From the IMG/VR virus record IMGVR_UViG_2579778929_000007: a stretch of DNA of 7,121 nucleotides. The stretch is one strand, 5' to 3'. A model generated the notes under the pieces. It was not told where the DNA came from, did no database searches, and was given only the letters and a program-made list of their open reading frames with translations. This document shows positions 1 to 7,121 of this stretch, in pieces. The DNA comes from a virus. Its lineage: Duplodnaviria > Heunggongvirae > Uroviricota > Caudoviricetes. Made by a program: the position numbers and the translations under genes. Each line of letters begins with the position of its first letter. Position 1 is the stretch's first letter.

Positions 1-306
1 GAAGAACTGACTGACATTCGCGACACACTGAATACGGCAATTGATAAGGAGTTGTCCCGTACAACCAGCGATGCGCTGTTTCTGGCGCTGCGCCGGGTGA
101 AAGCAGATCTGAATGCGGATATCAACACGCGCCTTGAACAGTCTGCACGGATCATTCAGCGCACACCGGATGAGGTTTTACCCGCGCTGGTGCTGGCGGC
201 GACCTGGTTTGATAACGCGACGCGTGACGCGGACATTATCCGGCGTAATGCCATTACGCATCCCGGCTTTGTGCCGGTGATCCCTCTGAAGGTGCCAGTG
301 CAATGA
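1..306 (+). CDS. C-terminal fragment of the tail-module protein that precedes the baseplate hub (the position occupied by the Mu gpN/gp43-type DNA circularisation protein); 5' end lies outside the window
   Basis: Frame 1 is open from base 1 (the ORF track starts it at an internal TTG at 52) and runs to TGA at 304-306. That stop overlaps the ATG of the next gene (ATGA at 303-306), indicating coupling to the hub gene. Product assigned by synteny only. Confidence 0.5.
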   Translation, partial: EELTDIRDTLNTAIDKELSRTTSDALFLALRRVKADLNADINTRLEQSARIIQRTPDEVLPALVLAATWFDNATRDADIIRRNAITHPGFVPVIPLKVPVQ

Positions 307-1382
307 ACGACAATGTCACGCTACGGGTAAATGGCCGGGAGTGGAATGGCTGGACATCGGTGCGCATCGGTGCCGGTATTGAACGGCTGGCGCGGGATTT
401 CAGTGTGGAGATCACCCGCCAGTGGCCGGGAGATGAGGGTATCACCACGCTTCAGCCGCGCATTAAAAACGGTTCAAAAGTGGAAGTGCTGATTGGTGAT
501 GAGCTGGTGATCACCGGCTGGGTGGAGGCGACTCCCGTTCGTTACGATGCCCGTTCGGTCAGCACCGGTATTGCCGGACGTAGTCTGACCGCTGACCTGA
601 TTGACTGTGCAGCCGAACCGACACAGTTTAACGGACGATCGCTGGTACAGATTGCGCAGGCGCTTGCTGCGCCTTTCGGCATTGAGGTGGTGAACAGCGG
701 TGCGCCGTCGGGTGTTATTCCTGATGTCCAGCCTGATCACGGTGAAACGGTGATTGAGGTAATCAACAAAATACTCGGTCAGCAGCAGGCACTGGCTTAC
801 GACGATCCGCACGGCAGGCTGGTGATTGGCGGTATTGGCTCAACGCGGGCACATACCGCGCTGGTACTTGGGGAAAACATCCTTTCCTGTGATACGGAGA
901 AGAGTATCCGGGAGCGGTTTTCTGTTTACCAGGTGGCGGGGCAGCGTGCCGGAAACGACGATGATTTCGGTGAGGCCACCACCACCGCGCTGCGGGCCCG
1001 CACAGAGGACGCATTTATTGCCCGTTACCGTCCGATGTATATCAGGCAGACAGGGCAGGCTACGGGGGCAGGCTGTATTGCGCGTGCTGACTTTGAAGCC
1101 CGGCAACGGGCGGCGCGGACGGATGAAACCACCTATGTGGTGCAGGGCTGGCGACAGGGTAACGGTACGCTGTGGCAACCCAACCAGCGGGTGATTGTCT
1201 TTGATCCGGTCTGTGGTTTTGACAATACCGAACTGCTTGTTTCGGAAGTCACGTTTACTCAGGACCAGAACGGCACCCTGACGGAAATCCGTGTCGGCCC
1301 GCCTGATGCTTATCTGCCTGAACCTGAAGACCCCGGCGCGCGGAAAAAGAAAAAAGCCAGAGTACAGGAGGCCCCGTTCTGA
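303..1382 (+). CDS. Baseplate hub protein, Mu gpP/gp44-like (P2 gpD late-control-D family)
   Basis: 359-aa ORF in the co-directional tail string, high GC, start overlaps the upstream stop. Size and position match the hub protein of Mu-type baseplates. Ends in a lysine-rich tail (ARKKKKARVQEAPF). Family call is from recall and synteny, not a search. Confidence 0.7.
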   Translation: MNDNVTLRVNGREWNGWTSVRIGAGIERLARDFSVEITRQWPGDEGITTLQPRIKNGSKVEVLIGDELVITGWVEATPVRYDARSVSTGIAGRSLTADLIDCAAEPTQFNGRSLVQIAQALAAPFGIEVVNSGAPSGVIPDVQPDHGETVIEVINKILGQQQALAYDDPHGRLVIGGIGSTRAHTALVLGENILSCDTEKSIRERFSVYQVAGQRAGNDDDFGEATTTALRARTEDAFIARYRPMYIRQTGQATGAGCIARADFEARQRAARTDETTYVVQGWRQGNGTLWQPNQRVIVFDPVCGFDNTELLVSEVTFTQDQNGTLTEIRVGPPDAYLPEPEDPGARKKKKARVQEAPF

Positions 1383-1930
1383 TGAGGACGATTGAAGCCA
1401 TGCAGCGACAACTTCTCGGCCTGATTGGGCGGGCAGTGGTGAAAAGCATCAGTGCCGCCACGAAATGTCAGACCGTGGATGTGTCCCTGATTGCCGGTGA
1501 ACCCAAAGCCGGGGTTGAACATCTTGAACCCTACGGTTTTACCGCAAGGGCAAACAGCGGTGCGGAAGCGGTGGTGTTGTTTCCGGATGGCGACCGTTCT
1601 CATGCGGTGGTTGTTACGGTGTCGGACCGGCGCTACCGCCTGAAAGGGCTGCATACGGGGGAGGTGGCTGTCTATGACGATCAGGGGCAGTCCGTGACGC
1701 TGACCCGGGAGGGGATCGTGGTGGACGGTGCAGGTAAAACGATCACGTTTCGCAATGCGCCTAAGGCTCGTTTTGAAATGGACCTGGAAGTGACCGGACA
1801 GGTGAAAGACCTGTGCGACTCCACCGGCACCACCATGTCAGCGATGCGGCTTGCCTATAACGGGCATCGTCACAGAGAGAACGGTCAGGGCAGTAACACC
1901 GACAAACCTGATAAAGCGATGGAGGCATGA
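1382..1930 (+). CDS. Baseplate spike/assembly protein, Mu gp45-like (P2 gpV family)
   Basis: 182-aa ORF. ATG at 1382 overlaps the hub stop (TGATG at 1380-1384). GGAGG at 1367-1371 upstream. Size and position are typical of gpV-like spike proteins following the hub. Confidence 0.65.
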   Translation: MRTIEAMQRQLLGLIGRAVVKSISAATKCQTVDVSLIAGEPKAGVEHLEPYGFTARANSGAEAVVLFPDGDRSHAVVVTVSDRRYRLKGLHTGEVAVYDDQGQSVTLTREGIVVDGAGKTITFRNAPKARFEMDLEVTGQVKDLCDSTGTTMSAMRLAYNGHRHRENGQGSNTDKPDKAMEA

Positions 1931-2355
1931 TGGAACTGTGGCTGACGGTGAACGGTAAACGCACCTGCGCCAGCGCACCGCTGGATCCGCTGACCCGTGC
2001 CGTGGTGATTTCCCTGTTCACCTGGCGGCGGGCTGAACCTGATGACAATGCCGACGTCCCGATGGGATGGTGGGGGGATACCTGGCCTGCGGTACAGAAT
2101 GACCGTTACGGCTCCCGACTGTGGCTGCTTCAGCGCAGCAAACTGACCAATCAGCTGGTGCAGACGGTAAGGGGATATATCCGCGAATGCCTGCAATGGA
2201 TGATTGATGACGGCGTAGTGTCCCGTATTGATCTGGATATCCGCCGCACCGGGATTAATGAGCTGGGTAACAGTATCACCCTCTGGCGTCGTGACGGACC
2301 GGTAATGATTTCTTTTGATGATCTGTGGAGTGCGATAACGCATGGCGGACAGTGA
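1927..2355 (+). CDS. Baseplate protein, Mu gp46-like (GP46 family)
   Basis: 142-aa ORF. Overlaps the previous stop (ATGATG at 1927-1932). GGAGG at 1921-1925 suggests the second ATG at 1930 may be the real start. Position between the spike and the baseplate J-like gene. Confidence 0.6.
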   Translation: MMELWLTVNGKRTCASAPLDPLTRAVVISLFTWRRAEPDDNADVPMGWWGDTWPAVQNDRYGSRLWLLQRSKLTNQLVQTVRGYIRECLQWMIDDGVVSRIDLDIRRTGINELGNSITLWRRDGPVMISFDDLWSAITHGGQ

Positions 2356-3400
2356 ATTTCAACGCCCGACGCTGGCAGAAAATATCAGTATGCTCCGTAA
2401 CGATTTATTCGCCAGGCTGGACGTCAGCGACACGCTCCGGCGCATGGATGAAGACGTGCGGGCAAAGGTGTATGCGGCGGCGCTGCATACGGTTTACGGT
2501 TACATCGATTATCTGGCAATGAACATGCTGCCTGACCTGTGCGATGAGTCCTGGCTGGCGCGACATGCTGCGATGAAACGGTGTCCGCGCAAGGGGGCCA
2601 CGTCTGCCAGCGGGTATATGCGCTGGGAAGGTGTCAGCGATGGCCTGAAGGTGACCGCCGGGAGTGTTATTCAGCGCGATGACCTGGTTCAGTACACGGC
2701 AACTTCTGATGCAACCAGCTCCGGTGGTGTCCTGCGCGTGCCGATCGCCTGCTCAACTGCAGGCGCGGTCGGTAACGCTGACGACGGTACGGCATTAATC
2801 CTGGTCACGCCGGTGAATGGTCTGCCGTCTTCCGGTGTGGCAGATACCCTGACTGGCGGATTCGATACTGAAGATCTGGAAACGTGGCGCGCCCGCGTCA
2901 TTGAGCGGTATTACTGGACGCCGCAGGGCGGGGCTGACGGGGACTATGTCGTCTGGGCTAAAGAAGTGCCCGGCATTACCCGCGCATGGACATACCGTCA
3001 CTGGATGGGAACGGGAACTGTCGGTGTGATGATTGCCAGCAGTGACCTGATTAATCCCATTCCGGAAGAATCAACGGAAACGGCGGCAAGACAACACATT
3101 GAGCCACTGGCCCCGGTGGCAGGCTCTGATTTGTATGTGTTCAGGCCGGTGGCGCATACGGTGGATTTTCATATCCGCGTGACGCCGGACACACCGGAAA
3201 TACGGGCTGCCATTACCGCAGAGTTGCGTTCATTCCTGCTGCGTGATGGTTATCCGCAGGGAGAGCTGAAGGTATCGCGTATCAGTGAAGCGATTTCCGG
3301 TGCGAACGGGGAATACAGCCATCAGTTGCTTGCTCCGGCGGACAATATCTCCATTGCAAAAAATGAACTGGCGGTTCTGGGGACGATTTCATGGACGTGA
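2342..3400 (+). CDS. Baseplate J-like protein, Mu gp47-like (P2 gpJ family; JayE-like)
   Basis: 352-aa ORF overlapping the upstream gene by 14 nt, with GGAG about 11 nt upstream. Size and position are those of the baseplate wedge J-like protein. Confidence 0.7.
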
Positions 3401-3975
3401 CAAACGATGATTACATCCGTCTGTTGTCGGCACTGCTGCCGCCCGGTCCGGCGTGGTCAGCCAGCGATCCGGCGATTGCCGGTGTGGCACCGTCATTAAC
3501 CCGCGTTCATCAGCGTGCGGATGCCCTGATGCGGGAGCTGGATCCGTGCACCACCACTGAACTGATAAACCGCTGGGAGCGTCTGTGCGGTCTGCCGGAT
3601 GAATGTATTCCCGCAGGGACACAGACCCTTCGCCAGCGTCAGCAACGGCTGGATGCGAAGGTTAACCTGGCGGGCGGCATCAACGAGAATTTTTATCTTG
3701 CACAGCTTGCTGCCCTGGGCAGACCAGATGCCACCATCACGCGATACGACAAAAGCACGTTCACCTGCTCATCGGCCTGTACTGACGCTGTGAACGCGCC
3801 TGAATGGCGGTATTACTGGCAGGTCAACATGCCAGCCGCCACCAACACCACCTGGATGACATGTGGCGATCCCTGTGATTCCGCACTGCGTATCTGGGGC
3901 GACACAGTTGTCGAATGTGTGCTTAACAAACTCTGCCCGTCGCATACCTACGTAATTTTTAAATATCCGGAGTAA
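3391..3975 (+). CDS. Tail protein, Mu gp48-like (DUF2313; P2 gpI analogue; YmfQ-like)
   Basis: 194-aa cysteine-containing ORF overlapping the upstream gene by 10 nt. It sits immediately before the tail-fibre gene, as in Mu and e14-type modules. Confidence 0.65.
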
Positions 3976-3978
3976 TCC

Positions 3979-4281
3979 ATGCATCGTATAGACACGAAAA
4001 CCGCGCAGAAGGATAAGTTCGGCGCGGGTAAGAACGGTTTTACCCGTGGTAACCCCCAGACCGGCACGCCTGCCACCGATCTGGATGATGACTACTTTGA
4101 CATGTTGCAGGAGGAGCTTTGCAGCGTTGTGGAGGCCTCCGGTGCCAGCCTGGAGAAGGGGCGGCATGACCAGCTGCTTACCGCGCTTCGTGCGCTGCTG
4201 TTAAGCCGCAAGAATCCGTTTGGCGATATCAAATCGGATGGCACGGTGAAAACGGCTCTCGAAAACCTTGCTTTAAGATGA
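3979..4281 (+). CDS. stf: Side tail fibre, constant N-terminal (baseplate-attachment) part; in this orientation terminated at TGA four codons after the crossover dinucleotide, giving a 100-aa product
   Basis: ATG at 3979 with GGAG at 3969-3972 (6-nt spacing). The reading frame runs through the candidate crossover site and stops at 4279-4281 (…TALENLALR*). Inversion would replace the last three codons with the glycine-rich tip in frame (see findings). Confidence 0.75.
4256..4281. other. Candidate invertase crossover site 1 (hix/gix/pix-like, 26 bp), central dinucleotide TT at 4268-4269
   Basis: CTCTCGAAAACC-TT-GCTTTAAGATGA. The AAAACC..GxTTTA arrangement around a 2-bp core resembles known Hin/Gin-family sites. 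It lies exactly at the end of the fibre constant region. Confidence 0.6.
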
Positions 4282-4370
4282 GAGTAGTAAACCCCTGTCC
4301 CGACGCCATGATACTATCGACTCATGACTCCTGAGTGTGTACCATTAACACAAAAAAATTGAGGTACATA

Positions 4371-5453
4371 ATGAAAAAAGTATTGATAGTTAGCTTGGTG
4401 GGCATCGGAGATCACTTATTATCACGAGTATTCATGAAATCACTCCGCGATGATGAAAAATATAAGCACGCTAAATTCACCTTGCTTGGCAACACTGCAT
4501 TCAAAGATTTTTCTCTCAAGTTTGATATGAATATATTTAATCATTTCATTTGGGTTGATTGTAATAAGGTTACTCCTTATGTGCAAACCAAAGAGAGCAC
4601 ATATACTAAGATTAAAAATAAAGCCATCAGGTTTTACATCAGAAATTTAATTAAGCACTCAAATTTCGATGAGATTATAGTTCCAGATTGGTGGGGTGCG
4701 TCAACTACTTTGCGTGTTACTCCATTTATCTCTAGTGTGAGGGATAGAGCCATCATCAATGGTATGAATATACCTGACCATCAAAGGGAGTTTTTTGGCT
4801 ATTCCACAAAGCCGGATATTGATTTTTCAAAGCATGTCCTGGATATGAATAAAGAGTTTTTCTCTGAGATTATACCATTTCCTAAATTCGAAGTTGAAAT
4901 TCCACTAAAAAATAAAAATAAAGACAGTGGCAAGATTGATATTTGCATTTCACTGGGAGCCTCTGCGCCTTTTAAAAAATACCCTGTATTACAATTAGCA
5001 AATGTAATAAACAGCATATCATCTTCATACAATGCCAATTTTAAAATCATTGGCTCCAATGATGAAATTTCAGATTACAATGTTCTTATTGAGCATATCG
5101 ATAACAAGGATATTGTAGCAGGTTTTGTTGGAAGGACTACATTATCTGAGTCGTGCGATATTGTTCTTTCATCTGAACTTTTGATTGCAAACGACACAGG
5201 CATGTTCCATGTTGGTGCTCTGGCAGGGATTAAAACTGTTTGTATTTCGAATGGTACTGGTTTGCATGCATTTGTGCCATACCCTGAGGAATTTTCGAAC
5301 TGTATTACGGTTTTCCCACCAGAGATACAAAACAAGGTAGGCACAAAAGATTTTATAAATGCACATGGCTGGTCTGGCTCAGCAATTCCGATGTCGAATA
5401 TATCACCAGACGATGTTCTTGCGGCTTGTTATAAATTGCTAAATAAAAAATAG
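4371..5453 (+). CDS. GT9-family glycosyltransferase (ADP-heptose:LPS heptosyltransferase-like, GT-B fold); substrate unknown
   Basis: The N-terminus KKVLIVSLVGIGDHLLS resembles the first Rossmann strand and G-x-GD motif of GT9 enzymes. The C-terminal LLIANDTGMFHVGALAGIKTVCISNGTG resembles the conserved GT9 donor-binding segment. GAGG at 4361-4364 is 6 nt before ATG 4371. The ORF track starts it at an in-frame GTG at 4335. Strongly AT-rich, by eye about 30% GC against more than 55% in the flanks. Confidence 0.65.
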   Translation: MKKVLIVSLVGIGDHLLSRVFMKSLRDDEKYKHAKFTLLGNTAFKDFSLKFDMNIFNHFIWVDCNKVTPYVQTKESTYTKIKNKAIRFYIRNLIKHSNFDEIIVPDWWGASTTLRVTPFISSVRDRAIINGMNIPDHQREFFGYSTKPDIDFSKHVLDMNKEFFSEIIPFPKFEVEIPLKNKNKDSGKIDICISLGASAPFKKYPVLQLANVINSISSSYNANFKIIGSNDEISDYNVLIEHIDNKDIVAGFVGRTTLSESCDIVLSSELLIANDTGMFHVGALAGIKTVCISNGTGLHAFVPYPEEFSNCITVFPPEIQNKVGTKDFINAHGWSGSAIPMSNISPDDVLAACYKLLNKK

Positions 5454-5463
5454 ATGAAGTAAT

Positions 5464-5859
5464 TCAAGCTGGCTTTTCCGGCCAGCTAATCTCTGCATTA
5501 GTGTTAGCGTCAATCCTGCTCAGCAATACCCGGTATTGCTTCCACAATGGCAGCGCTACGGTTTCTGCATCTGTCGCCATACTCAAATCAACAGCATCCT
5601 GTAAAACGCTAATCTGTTGTGTCGCCTCACTCATCAGTGCGTTTTTTGTAGCCAGATTATTGGCTATTTTCTGCTGTTTTGCTGCCTCAAGTTCTTTATT
5701 AGTTGGCGGTGGCGCACTAAAAACATCGTTATCGTAATGCCAGCCGATACCAACACCATCGGTAGAGAGAATGGCACTTGCTGATTCAGGCCACTCTGAC
5801 TCGCCATCCCAGATAACAATATTTTCTACGATACCATTTTTGATAATTGCATAGTTCAT
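5464..5859 (-). CDS. tfa: Tail fibre assembly protein (Tfa chaperone; Mu gpU / e14 TfaE-like)
   Basis: 131-aa ORF. The C-terminus …LSMATDAETVALPLWKQYRVLLSRIDANTNAEISWPEKPA matches the conserved C-terminal motif of Tfa chaperones. Its ATG directly abuts the TAA of the fibre tip ORF (TAAATG on the - strand), with GGAG 9 nt upstream. Confidence 0.8.
   Translation of the reverse strand: MNYAIIKNGIVENIVIWDGESEWPESASAILSTDGVGIGWHYDNDVFSAPPPTNKELEAAKQQKIANNLATKNALMSEATQQISVLQDAVDLSMATDAETVALPLWKQYRVLLSRIDANTNAEISWPEKPA
5467..5487. terminator. Hairpin between the convergent glycosyltransferase and chaperone genes; possible bidirectional terminator
   Basis: AGCTGGC (5467-5473) pairs with GCCAGCT (5481-5487) around a short T-rich loop. 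It lies between the stop at 5451-5453 (+) and the stop at 5464-5466 (-). No clean U-tract on either strand. Confidence 0.3.
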
Positions 5860-6498
5860 TTACGCATACTCCAAAATAATAATCACGCCAGCATTGCCCG
5901 GGTTGCCGTTGACATTCTGCGCCCCACCACTGGTTGCAGCGCCATTACCACCAGCACCATACCCACCAGGGCCAGAAATAAAGCTACCGCCGCCAAGTCC
6001 GGAACCTACAGTCCCTCCGACTGCTGTTGGGGTTGCCATCACACCGGGCAGCCCGGCGTACCCGTTGCACAAAAGGGCACCCACGGTCGAAGTGCCACCC
6101 TGACCGCCCATGCCACATGACGCAGAGGAACCTGACGCGGTGCAGCCGTTGCCTGGCTGGCCTCCACCTGCTGAGAGATAAGAGCCAAAAGTCGTCGTGC
6201 CGCCCTGTGTACCATTGGTTATCGTCGACGCAATACCGCCATTACCACCCGCACCAATCGTGACAAGCACGGTTGATATCGCAGACAGGTTAAAGAGACC
6301 GCGTGCCATTCCACCGCCACCACCACCGCCACCCGCTGCGTTATAGTTTCCTGTGGAAGTTGCCCAGCCGCCGCCCCCACCGCCCCCAATAGCGATGACA
6401 TCCGCGAACATTGCTCCGGGGGTTTTGGTGTAAGTGCCAGACGTCTTGATTATCTGCATGCCAATCAGACGGCCGACTGCGCCGTTATTTACTAAACC
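5860..6498 (-). CDS. stf: Tail fibre C-terminal variable (receptor-binding) cassette, glycine-rich; not fused to the fibre N-terminus in this orientation
   Basis: The - strand frame is open from the crossover core down to TAA at 5860-5862. Translation is rich in poly-Gly runs (…AIGGGGGGGW…AAGGGGGGGGM…). The first 14 codons of the tracked ORF (6499-6540) lie outside the segment and are probably not a genuine start. Directly followed by tfa. Confidence 0.75.
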   Translation of the reverse strand, partial: GLVNNGAVGRLIGMQIIKTSGTYTKTPGAMFADVIAIGGGGGGGWATSTGNYNAAGGGGGGGGMARGLFNLSAISTVLVTIGAGGNGGIASTITNGTQGGTTTFGSYLSAGGGQPGNGCTASGSSASCGMGGQGGTSTVGALLCNGYAGLPGVMATPTAVGGTVGSGLGGGSFISGPGGYGAGGNGAATSGGAQNVNGNPGNAGVIIILEYA

Positions 6499-6512
6499 AA
6501 CGTTTATGAAAA
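6487..6512. other. Candidate invertase crossover site 2 (inverted relative to site 1), central dinucleotide AA at 6499-6500
   Basis: ATTTACTAAACC-AA-CGTTTATGAAAA. Its reverse complement aligns with site 1 at about 15 of 26 positions by hand alignment, concentrated around the core (AAAC.TTG.TTTA). It sits 55 bp upstream of the invertase ATG. Confidence 0.6.
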
Positions 6513-6566
6513 TGCAGAAATAACGAGCAAATGGCATCATTCCTGCTTTTGTCAGGGAGAGCTACC

Positions 6567-7121
6567 ATGCTTATTGGCTATGTATGTGTGTCAACAAATG
6601 ACCAGAACACAGATCTACAACGTAATGCGTTGAACTGTGTAGGATGTGAACTGATTTTTGAAGACAAGATAAGCGGTACGAAGTCCGAAAGGCCCGGACT
6701 GAAAAAACTGCTCAGGACATTATCGGCAGGTGACACTCTGGTTGTCTGGAAGCTGGACAGGTTAGGGCGCAGTATGCGGCATCTTGTTACGCTGATAGAA
6801 GAGTTGCGCCAGCGTGGCGTGAATTTCCGAAGCCTGACTGACAGTATTGATACCAGTACCCCAATGGGCCGTTTCTTTTTTCATGTCATGGGTGCCCTGG
6901 CTGAAATGGAACGAGAACTGATTGTTGAACGAACAAAAGCTGGACTGGAAGCTGCTCGCGCACAGGGACGAATTGGTGGACGTCGTCCCAAACTTACACC
7001 AGAACAATGGGCGCAGGCCGGGCGATTAATTGCATCAGGCGTTCCTCGCCAGAAGGTGGCGATCATCTATGATGTTGGTATATCGACACTGTATAAGAAG
7101 TTTCCGGTCGGAGATAAATGA
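6567..7121 (+). CDS. pin: Site-specific DNA invertase, serine recombinase of the Gin/Pin/Hin/Cin family
   Basis: Translation from ATG 6567 begins MLIGYVCVSTNDQNTDLQRNAL… and contains …VVWKLDRLGRSMRHL… and …SLTDSIDTSTPMGRFFFHVMGALAEMERELIVERT…GRIGGRRPKL…, closely resembling Pin/Gin/Hin invertases as I recall them. GGGAGAG at 6555-6561 is 5 nt before the ATG. The ORF track extends to an upstream ATG at 6531, which I consider less likely. The stop is at the last three bases of the window. Confidence 0.9.
   Translation: MLIGYVCVSTNDQNTDLQRNALNCVGCELIFEDKISGTKSERPGLKKLLRTLSAGDTLVVWKLDRLGRSMRHLVTLIEELRQRGVNFRSLTDSIDTSTPMGRFFFHVMGALAEMERELIVERTKAGLEAARAQGRIGGRRPKLTPEQWAQAGRLIASGVPRQKVAIIYDVGISTLYKKFPVGDK

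Follow-up and report, generated by a model that had tools for sequence, protein, structure and literature searches.

The window analysed here is a stretch of 7,121 nt of tailed-phage DNA (IMG/VR record IMGVR_UViG_2579778929_000007), which harbours at positions 3979-4281 a truncated side-fibre gene at the left border of an invertible DNA segment. At its right border this segment is followed by the gene of a serine DNA invertase, Pin. A first-pass annotation of the same DNA had proposed that the sequenced orientation is a fibre-off state. We consider it likely that the segment, which carries a single fibre cassette together with a gene for a glycosyltransferase of the GT9 family as cargo, is a fibre ON/OFF switch, and that in this locus the switch is frozen in the OFF state in a tail-only prophage remnant. 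In the following, OFF designates the orientation present in the window and ON the inverted one, and Sc and Sv are the constant and variable parts of the fibre.

The truncated fibre gene and the invertible segment

The region from the fibre gene to the end of the window contains the following features.

3979..4281, plus strand: truncated side-fibre gene of the e14/StfP type; open reading frame (ORF) of 100 codons, of which 1-97 encode Sc, followed by Ala-Leu-Arg-stop from the inner half-site
4256..4281: crossover site 1, 26 bp, with the outer half-site CTCTCGAAAACC, the core TT at 4268-4269 and the inner half-site GCTTTAAGATGA; assigned by junction comparison, by comparison with e14 of K-12 and by ON/OFF reconstruction
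4270..6498: invertible segment between the core dinucleotides, 2,229 bp; moves as one cassette between prophage types
4282..4370, plus strand: leader of 89 nt between the stop codon of the fibre stub and the start of the GT9 gene, with GAGGT 6 nt before the ATG
4371..5453, plus strand: cargo gene for a predicted GT9-family glycosyltransferase of 360 residues; assigned by Pfam PF01075, a PDB match and a fold match of the AlphaFold model
5464..5859, minus strand: tail-fibre assembly chaperone, 131 residues; Pfam Caudo_TAP, E = 4e-23, and PHROG tail-fibre assembly families
5860..6498, minus strand: variable fibre tip Sv with a glycine-rich domain; assigned by Pfam Gly_rich_2, in-silico inversion and natural ON fibres
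6487..6512: crossover site 2, 26 bp, with the inner half-site ATTTACTAAACC, the core AA at 6499-6500 and the outer half-site CGTTTATGAAAA; assigned by the same comparisons as site 1
6499..6540, minus strand: pin-proximal ORF start outside the segment, MMPFARYFCIFINV, which is fused to Sv in the sequenced orientation
6567..7121, plus strand: full-length Pin-type serine DNA invertase, 184 residues; Pfam Resolvase, E = 9e-50, and HTH_7

The stop codon of the truncated fibre gene, TGA at 4279-4281, consists of the last three bases of crossover site 1. The core TT provides bases 2 and 3 of the Leu97 codon, after which the frame continues with GCT TTA AGA TGA. The stop is the fourth codon past the core, exactly as the first-pass annotation had stated. 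All but one of residues 1-97 are the same as in StfP of the cryptic prophage e14 of K-12. Their matches are confined to the N-termini of tail-fibre families (phrog_1396, E = 4e-52, profile positions 19-118 of 504), and a receptor-binding domain was absent from these residues in the phage-family profile search. This is in line with the earlier claim that the sequenced orientation gives a fibre stub lacking the receptor-binding domain. In near-identical loci the stub is labelled by RefSeq as 'protein StfP, incomplete, missing C-terminus'.

When positions 4270-6498 were inverted in silico, Sc was fused in frame to Sv (at the ON junction, Sc is joined to GGTTTAGTAAAT), resulting in a fibre of 309 residues followed by the chaperone gene. 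Natural ON-state fibres of 309 residues exist in e14/SfV-like prophages and are 96-98% identical to the predicted fusion. An in-frame fusion of a constant and a variable part with a chaperone gene behind it is found in the inverted orientation only, and thus the proposal that a full fibre can arise only after inversion holds. There are no two alternative fibre C-termini in the segment, the second slot being occupied by the GT9 gene. The postulated departure from classical two-fibre segments was also borne out, since the two fibres of e14 in K-12, StfP and StfE, were seen directly.

In the sequenced orientation, the ORF of the tip extends beyond site 2 as far as an ATG-ATG at 6540/6537. It is a free-standing ORF of 226 codons, the first 14 of which lie outside the segment, and is labelled 'glycine-rich domain-containing protein' in RefSeq. 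Its pin-proximal start is homologous to the start of StfE in K-12, MPFACYFFIFINV. The Shine-Dalgarno-like sequence AGGA directly abuts the first ATG, and a consensus scan for a leftward promoter-like site near pin found none up to position 6700. In the ON state the cargo gene would follow, from the pin side, a 17-codon ORF composed of the pin-proximal start and Ala-Leu-Arg-stop, which ends at the same TGA. In both orientations the cargo gene is thus located approximately 90 nt behind a short ORF ending at the TGA of the site.

Because sites 1 and 2 match as an inverted repeat at only 15 of 26 positions, they were not reported by the repeat finder run on the window, and we defined them by comparison among loci instead. 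The outer half-sites and the core dinucleotides are identical to those of the P segment of e14, the inverted repeats of which are given in PMC12529663. In 15 other loci the boundaries of the segment fall exactly at the core dinucleotides. Further, the 2,229-bp segment is 98-100% identical in e14/SfV-like and P2-like contexts, while the flanks are swapped exactly at the cores. Finally, an in-silico inversion of the segment of the P2-like ON locus L006 at the bases assigned here reproduced the independent OFF locus L007 with 100.000% identity over 10,139 bp. The sites at 4256-4281 and 6487-6512 are demonstrably the true exchange points, and the cassette demonstrably inverts in P2-like prophages. 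Two 26-bp sites in inverted orientation with 2-bp cores, as found here, are characteristic of the Din family.

The junction and the stop codon of the window recur in two complete genomes, one IMG/VR contig and no fewer than 11 other assemblies. The assembly error at the stop, which the first-pass annotation had named as a possible refutation, is thereby ruled out.

The cargo gene and the contents of the slot in related loci

The G+C content of the cargo gene is 31-42%, versus 55-62% in the flanking phage genes. The deduced protein matches PF01075 with 30.4 bits (cut-off 22, E = 3e-7) and shows a weak sequence match to PDB entry 3tov (E = 3.5e-5). In its AlphaFold model (predicted local distance difference test, pLDDT, 85; predicted template modelling score, pTM, 0.87) the two Rossmann domains of a GT-B fold are present. 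The best PDB matches of the model are 3tov, 1psw (WaaF) and 2gt1 (WaaC), with template modelling (TM) scores of 0.63-0.71 and E values down to 8e-16. The scores in the equivalog models for WaaC/WaaF/WaaQ are far below the cut-offs (35.8 vs 134.6 bits for TIGR02195, 25.5 vs 185.3 for TIGR02193, and 15.1 vs 170.2 for TIGR02201). By its sequence and predicted structure, the cargo is a GT9-family glycosyltransferase with a GT-B fold, and by the equivalog scores it does not group with the heptosyltransferases of the lipopolysaccharide (LPS) core.

The GT9 protein is an orphan, which forms one cluster at 90% identity and is found in E. coli only. Identity to the next relatives does not exceed 30%; these belong to Ignavibacteria and other environmental bacteria, where they are encoded in cellular polysaccharide clusters, not in phage loci. 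A PHROGs search with the protein gave no phage family match. As judged from its base composition, the gene is a foreign insert of the moron type, presumably acquired by horizontal transfer. Neither the GT9 gene in the empty slot nor the travel of the cassette between prophage types had been noticed in the first-pass annotation.

In the OFF state the GT9 gene is located 90 nt downstream of the fibre stub and is co-directional with it, and its ribosome-binding site is a good one. The consensus scan of 4282-4370 revealed no terminator-like site and no promoter-like match able to include the GT9 start codon; in the sole match upstream of the gene (4345-4372) the -10 element overlaps the ATG. By eye, an extended -10-like sequence, TGaTACTAT, can be seen at 4309-4317, 54 nt before the GT9 start, with a poor -35 element; it was not reported by the consensus scan. 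Likewise, in a version of the cassette with an acyltransferase gene (see below), no promoter able to include the cargo start and no terminator before the cargo were detected. A perfect 12-nt inverted repeat, AAGCCGCAAGAA / TTCTTGCGGCTT, has one arm in the constant fibre part (4203-4214) and the other close to the 3' end of the GT9 gene (5416-5427). According to a back-of-envelope estimate about 0.2 such pairs are expected by chance in a 2.8-kb region, and the repeat may be fortuitous. The Rfam scan of the window gave no match to an RNA family.

In other E. coli strains the cassette is carried by P2-like prophages, with the fibre gene H on one side and the sheath gene on the other. Their ON state is an H fibre of 562 residues fused to the glycine-rich tip, and their OFF state is an H stub of 353 residues with the same Ala-Leu-Arg-stop end; the same inner half-site with TGA is present in every P2-like copy. 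In the phage genome collection we found no sequenced phage with either cassette, the only matches being to the constant fibre part, in SfV-like phages.

The same tip and chaperone are also found with other contents of the slot. A gene for a membrane acyltransferase (Acyl_transf_3) occupies it in the P2-like prophage of window-type genomes and in e14/SfV-like prophages that are ON. The former is exemplified by L029 (E. coli 102651, NZ_CP189662.1, 885680-901140), an intact-looking P2-like prophage with the one-fibre layout, an acyltransferase of 381 residues and its own Pin with Arg-7. This locus is also OFF, its H stub reading about 30 codons past the crossover, and its inner half-site ends with TGG, not TGA. 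A ClpP-like protease gene occupies the slot in L032 (IMG/VR UViG_2579778993_000005, 1504-4100) and L040 (NZ_CP189662.1, 1493943-1504418), together with residual sequence from a second chaperone gene. This locus, beside ssrA, is in the ON arrangement, and its invertase gene is truncated at the 5' end and has an internal stop, so that it appears to be locked ON. Moreover, the same tip exists with a classical second fibre in L035 and without any segment in L034. The series fits the capture of cargo genes, with the slot as a putative cargo hotspot. Since the ClpP-type relative keeps a leftover chaperone fragment, we infer that a second fibre cassette once stood where the cargo is now. The ClpP-like protease in the same slot weakens the notion that every cargo is an enzyme which modifies the receptor and suits this tip.

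The invertase and the state of the element

Pin is similar to the Gin structures 3uj3 and 4m6f over residues 1-181 (E = 2e-92), and its gene lies next to the segment, as is the case in Din-family systems. However, residue 7 of Pin is Cys (TGT, 6585-6587): the protein reads MLIGYVCVSTNDQ, with the motif YVCVS in place of YxRVS. In the alignment C7 is opposite R7 of Gin and R8 of gamma-delta resolvase, the catalytic Arg, and the set of catalytic residues (Tyr, Arg and Ser of YxRVS, among others) is incomplete in Pin. PinE of K-12, every P2-like Pin and nine further members of the 90% cluster to which the protein belongs have kept the Arg, R7C being unique among the homologues examined. In Tn3 resolvase the exchanges R8A and R8K abolish recombination in vivo and decrease cleavage at least about 5,000-fold (PMC2794168). 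By analogy, R7C would be expected to inactivate Pin, and the activity of this family member is doubtful.

The exact R7C protein is encoded on 44 contigs, always at the same chromosomal site beside rclC. All ten representative loci with this allele, which stand for 24 contigs, have site 2 in the OFF arrangement, while the P2-like copies with Arg comprise approximately 16 ON and 5 OFF loci (Fisher's exact p = 3e-8, which is overstated, as the R7C contigs represent one clonal lineage). A search of IMG/VR revealed no ON junction of the GT9 cassette on an e14-type pin flank. Further, as described in PMC12529663, the P segment of a K-12 pinE mutant stays locked despite the presence of paralogues. 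With R7C in Pin and all contigs with this allele in the OFF arrangement, the fibre-off state is probably frozen in this lineage and not a phase.

A degenerate Fis consensus match, GTGTAGGATGTGAAC, was predicted at 6637-6651 (+71 of pin), and is present at the same position in pinE of K-12 and in two P2-like pin genes. It is possibly a part of a recombinational enhancer, although with this degenerate pattern no second Fis site was found 48 bp away.

Loci sharing 99.83-99.92% identity with the window are present in E. coli 102651, in TUM14664 and on an IMG/VR contig, the value for the two closest complete genomes being 99.83-99.87%. A count of 6-12 differences over 7.1 kb marks the lineage as young and close to clonal. 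Each of the two complete genomes has the order IS1, a head-closure gene, tail and baseplate genes, the segment, pin and the chromosomal rclC gene, and in both examined genomes the element is devoid of head, terminase, lysis and regulatory genes. In addition, one neighbouring gene is frameshifted in both complete genomes and the tape-measure gene in one. As judged on these near-identical relatives, the modules of a functional prophage (head, terminase, lysis, regulation) are lacking, and the element is most likely a tail-only prophage remnant, which would be unable to produce virions. The predicted virion phenotype would therefore not apply: the first-pass annotation had expected virions lacking a functional side fibre, and this is moot for an element that is a tail-only remnant in the two closest complete genomes. 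Other fibre loci are present in the same genomes as the window-type locus.

Short-read contigs end at the cassette or turn chimeric across it (L014, L015, L021, L024, L026-L028; examples are L024 1-260 and L021 1-3300). In one chimeric example the end of a P2-type H gene is joined to the rcl-adjacent locus with Pin R7C. The breaks and chimeras likely arise because the tip, the chaperone and the sites occur in two or three copies per genome. We considered L024 and L021 as new left flanks of the R7C locus, but they are better explained as chimeric short-read contigs over the multicopy cassette.

The part of the window upstream of the fibre gene is occupied by baseplate genes in the same operon direction.

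303..3975, plus strand: Mu-type baseplate genes gp44/P-like, gp45/V-like, gp46, gp47/J-like and gp48/YmfQ-like; intact ORFs, assigned by Pfam GpP-like, Baseplate_J and Phage_Mu_Gp48 and by the RefSeq annotation of near-identical loci

Overlaps of 1-14 bases (ATGA-type) exist at 303-306, 1379-1385, 1927-1930, 2342-2355 and 3391-3400, a pattern to be expected where translation is coupled along a tail operon. A Lys-rich tail, ARKKKKARVQEAPF, forms the C-terminus of the gp44-like protein.

Comparison with known systems and possible roles of the switch

One of the closest known systems is the P segment of e14 with PinE in K-12. It shares with the window residues 1-97 of StfP (but for one position), the outer half-sites, the cores, the pin-proximal start and the order ymfQ, fibre gene, segment and pin, and the pin genes are 88% identical at the DNA level. 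In contrast to the window, e14 is located at icd and has two cassettes of tip and chaperone (StfP/TfaP and StfE/TfaE), so that a fibre is made both ways. In the window the GT9 gene stands in place of one cassette, the inner half-sites differ, Pin carries R7C and the element lies beside rclC.

The G segment of Mu with Gin and the C segment of P1 with Cin are similar in that the serine invertase gene is adjacent, the constant part of the fibre gene is outside and the variable part with the chaperone is inside the segment; with Mu, the window also shares the Mu-type baseplate genes upstream. The G and C segments alternate between two functional fibres and act as host-range switches, whereas the segment of the window would alternate between fibre and no fibre. 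In the latter respect it resembles the H segment of Salmonella with Hin, a recombinase of the same family, by which one gene for a surface structure is switched ON or OFF depending on the orientation. Hin flips a promoter (flagellar phase variation). In contrast, inversion of the segment in the window makes or breaks a coding fusion, and the scan showed no promoter inside the segment that could include the GT9 start.

The P2-like carriers hold the cassette exactly at the Z/fun hotspot of P2, which is flanked by the genes G (fibre assembly) and FI (sheath). According to bioRxiv 10.1101/2024.10.15.618418, this hotspot serves mixed purposes and harbours exchanged fibre genes, cargo of other kinds and, frequently, DNA invertases. 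Unlike the Z/fun cargo described there, the cargo of the window sits inside the segment in the place of the alternative fibre, so that inversion disconnects the sole tip. In xenorhabdicin tailocin loci, a sugar-transferase gene is likewise found among invertible or exchangeable P2-type fibre cassettes, and LPS modification for self-protection was proposed as its role (bioRxiv 10.1101/2025.04.19.648921). Those loci belong to another genus and encode other enzyme families, no adjacent invertase was reported for them, and the function is putative in both cases. Cargo and invertases in Z/fun and glycosyltransferases in tailocin loci were thus known before. Our literature searches found no description of a segment with one fibre plus cargo, or of a cargo replacing the alternative fibre with a fibreless phase as the result.

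The sequence at 3979-4281 represents the constant 5' part of a fibre gene, read across the left site of a Pin segment of the Gin/Cin/Hin family. As one cassette and a cargo are present instead of two opposed cassettes, the segment would be a switch between fibre ON and OFF and not between fibre A and fibre B. The sole fibre fusion is formed or broken by inversion, the sequenced state being the broken one, and the cassette moves between P2-like and e14/SfV-like prophages. In the lineage of the window the state is probably frozen by R7C, with no consequence for virions if the element is a remnant.

Several points weigh against this interpretation. All ORFs of the window are intact and no decay is visible within it, and the remnant status was read from near-identical genomes and not from the window's own source. 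That Pin R7C would be inactive is an extrapolation from Tn3 resolvase, not from a DNA invertase. The 24 OFF contigs represent one clonal lineage and not independent events. Moreover, the same genomes encode at least one Arg-intact Pin, in the P2-like prophage L029, and according to PMC12529663, over-produced PinQ can act in trans on e14; rare inversion in trans is therefore possible. Finally, the GT9 version shows no trace of a second fibre cassette.

Four other explanations were weighed against the frozen ON/OFF switch. That an artefact of sequencing or assembly created the stop or the orientation has a negligible probability: short-read assemblies do break or become chimeric at the repeated cassette, but the identical junction and stop were found in other assemblies as described above, and the inner half-site contains the TGA in every P2-like copy. 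An active fibre phase switch would be a form of bet-hedging, in which OFF cells release virions without side fibres and ON cells infectious ones. This is a reasonable prediction for P2-like phages, which have a 353-residue H stub without tip when OFF, and in intact-looking P2-like prophages with an Arg-7 Pin both states are found, exact to the base. For the locus of the window it is improbable, however, since the element lacks head, lysis and regulatory genes, Pin carries R7C and 24 of 24 contigs are OFF. A benefit for the host could also have kept the OFF state: the orphan tip (226 residues, with its chaperone) or the GT9 protein could be useful and may block or alter a phage receptor, and R7C would then have fixed a useful state. 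In favour of this, GT9, chaperone, tip and Pin have intact ORFs in an element that has lost its head, lysis and regulatory genes and in which a gene nearby carries a frameshift, and there is a precedent for cryptic-prophage fibre fragments in defence, StfE2 of e14 (PMC12529663). However, the lineage is young and near-clonal, and intact ORFs are therefore no sign of selection; we regard this possibility as similarly improbable.

It is also tempting to speculate that the segment connects two payloads in turn, the tip with its chaperone and the cargo enzyme, to two ports, the late tail operon and the pin-proximal start MMPFARYFCIFINV. In the ON state virions would contain the complete fibre and the cargo would be read from the pin side after the 17-codon leader, while in the OFF state the cargo would be read from the tail operon and the 226-residue orphan tip protein would be made. 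The orientation would thus control expression of the cargo, and with it surface modification, as well as the fibre. In line with this, the cargo follows a short ORF ending at the TGA in both orientations at nearly the same distance. Moreover, the segment has no promoter-like site including the GT9 start and no terminator before GT9, the acyltransferase version being alike, and the pin-proximal start is conserved with StfE of K-12. From the literature, the adsorption of T2 was reduced by the StfE-started chimera StfE2 produced from a plasmid (PMC12529663), and the glycosyltransferase genes in the variable fibre region of the P2-like xenorhabdicin loci were proposed to provide self-resistance (bioRxiv 10.1101/2025.04.19.648921). 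However, no leftward promoter-like site was found beside pin up to position 6700, AGGA abuts the ATG, and the TGaTACTAT seen by eye at 4309-4317 could make expression of GT9 independent of the orientation. Further, the mixture of cargos (GT9, acyltransferase, ClpP-like protease) is more readily explained by a passive hotspot than by a designed pairing. Altogether, an arrangement with two ports is unlikely, though perhaps slightly less so than bet-hedging or a benefit for the host. If it existed, it would couple the infectivity of virions to the lysogen's own surface, which would be modified or masked in a phase-variable way, via GT9 or the acyltransferase and the re-routing of the orphan tip, a consequence which we consider equally unlikely.

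If the frozen ON/OFF switch is the correct interpretation, the consequences for the window itself are small, since the locus is decayed and probably frozen. More generally, the machinery for invertible fibres can carry a single tip together with unrelated cargo, and the flip would then result in a fibreless phage and not in a re-targeted one. Since both states exist in nature in intact P2-like carriers, a part of a lysogen population may release particles that do not adsorb. The cost of such fibreless particles would call for an explanation, with either the cargo being beneficial or the cost being a side effect of its capture. Last but not least, for genome annotation it is relevant that a 'partial StfP' and a free-standing 'glycine-rich protein' can be the two halves of one switchable gene.

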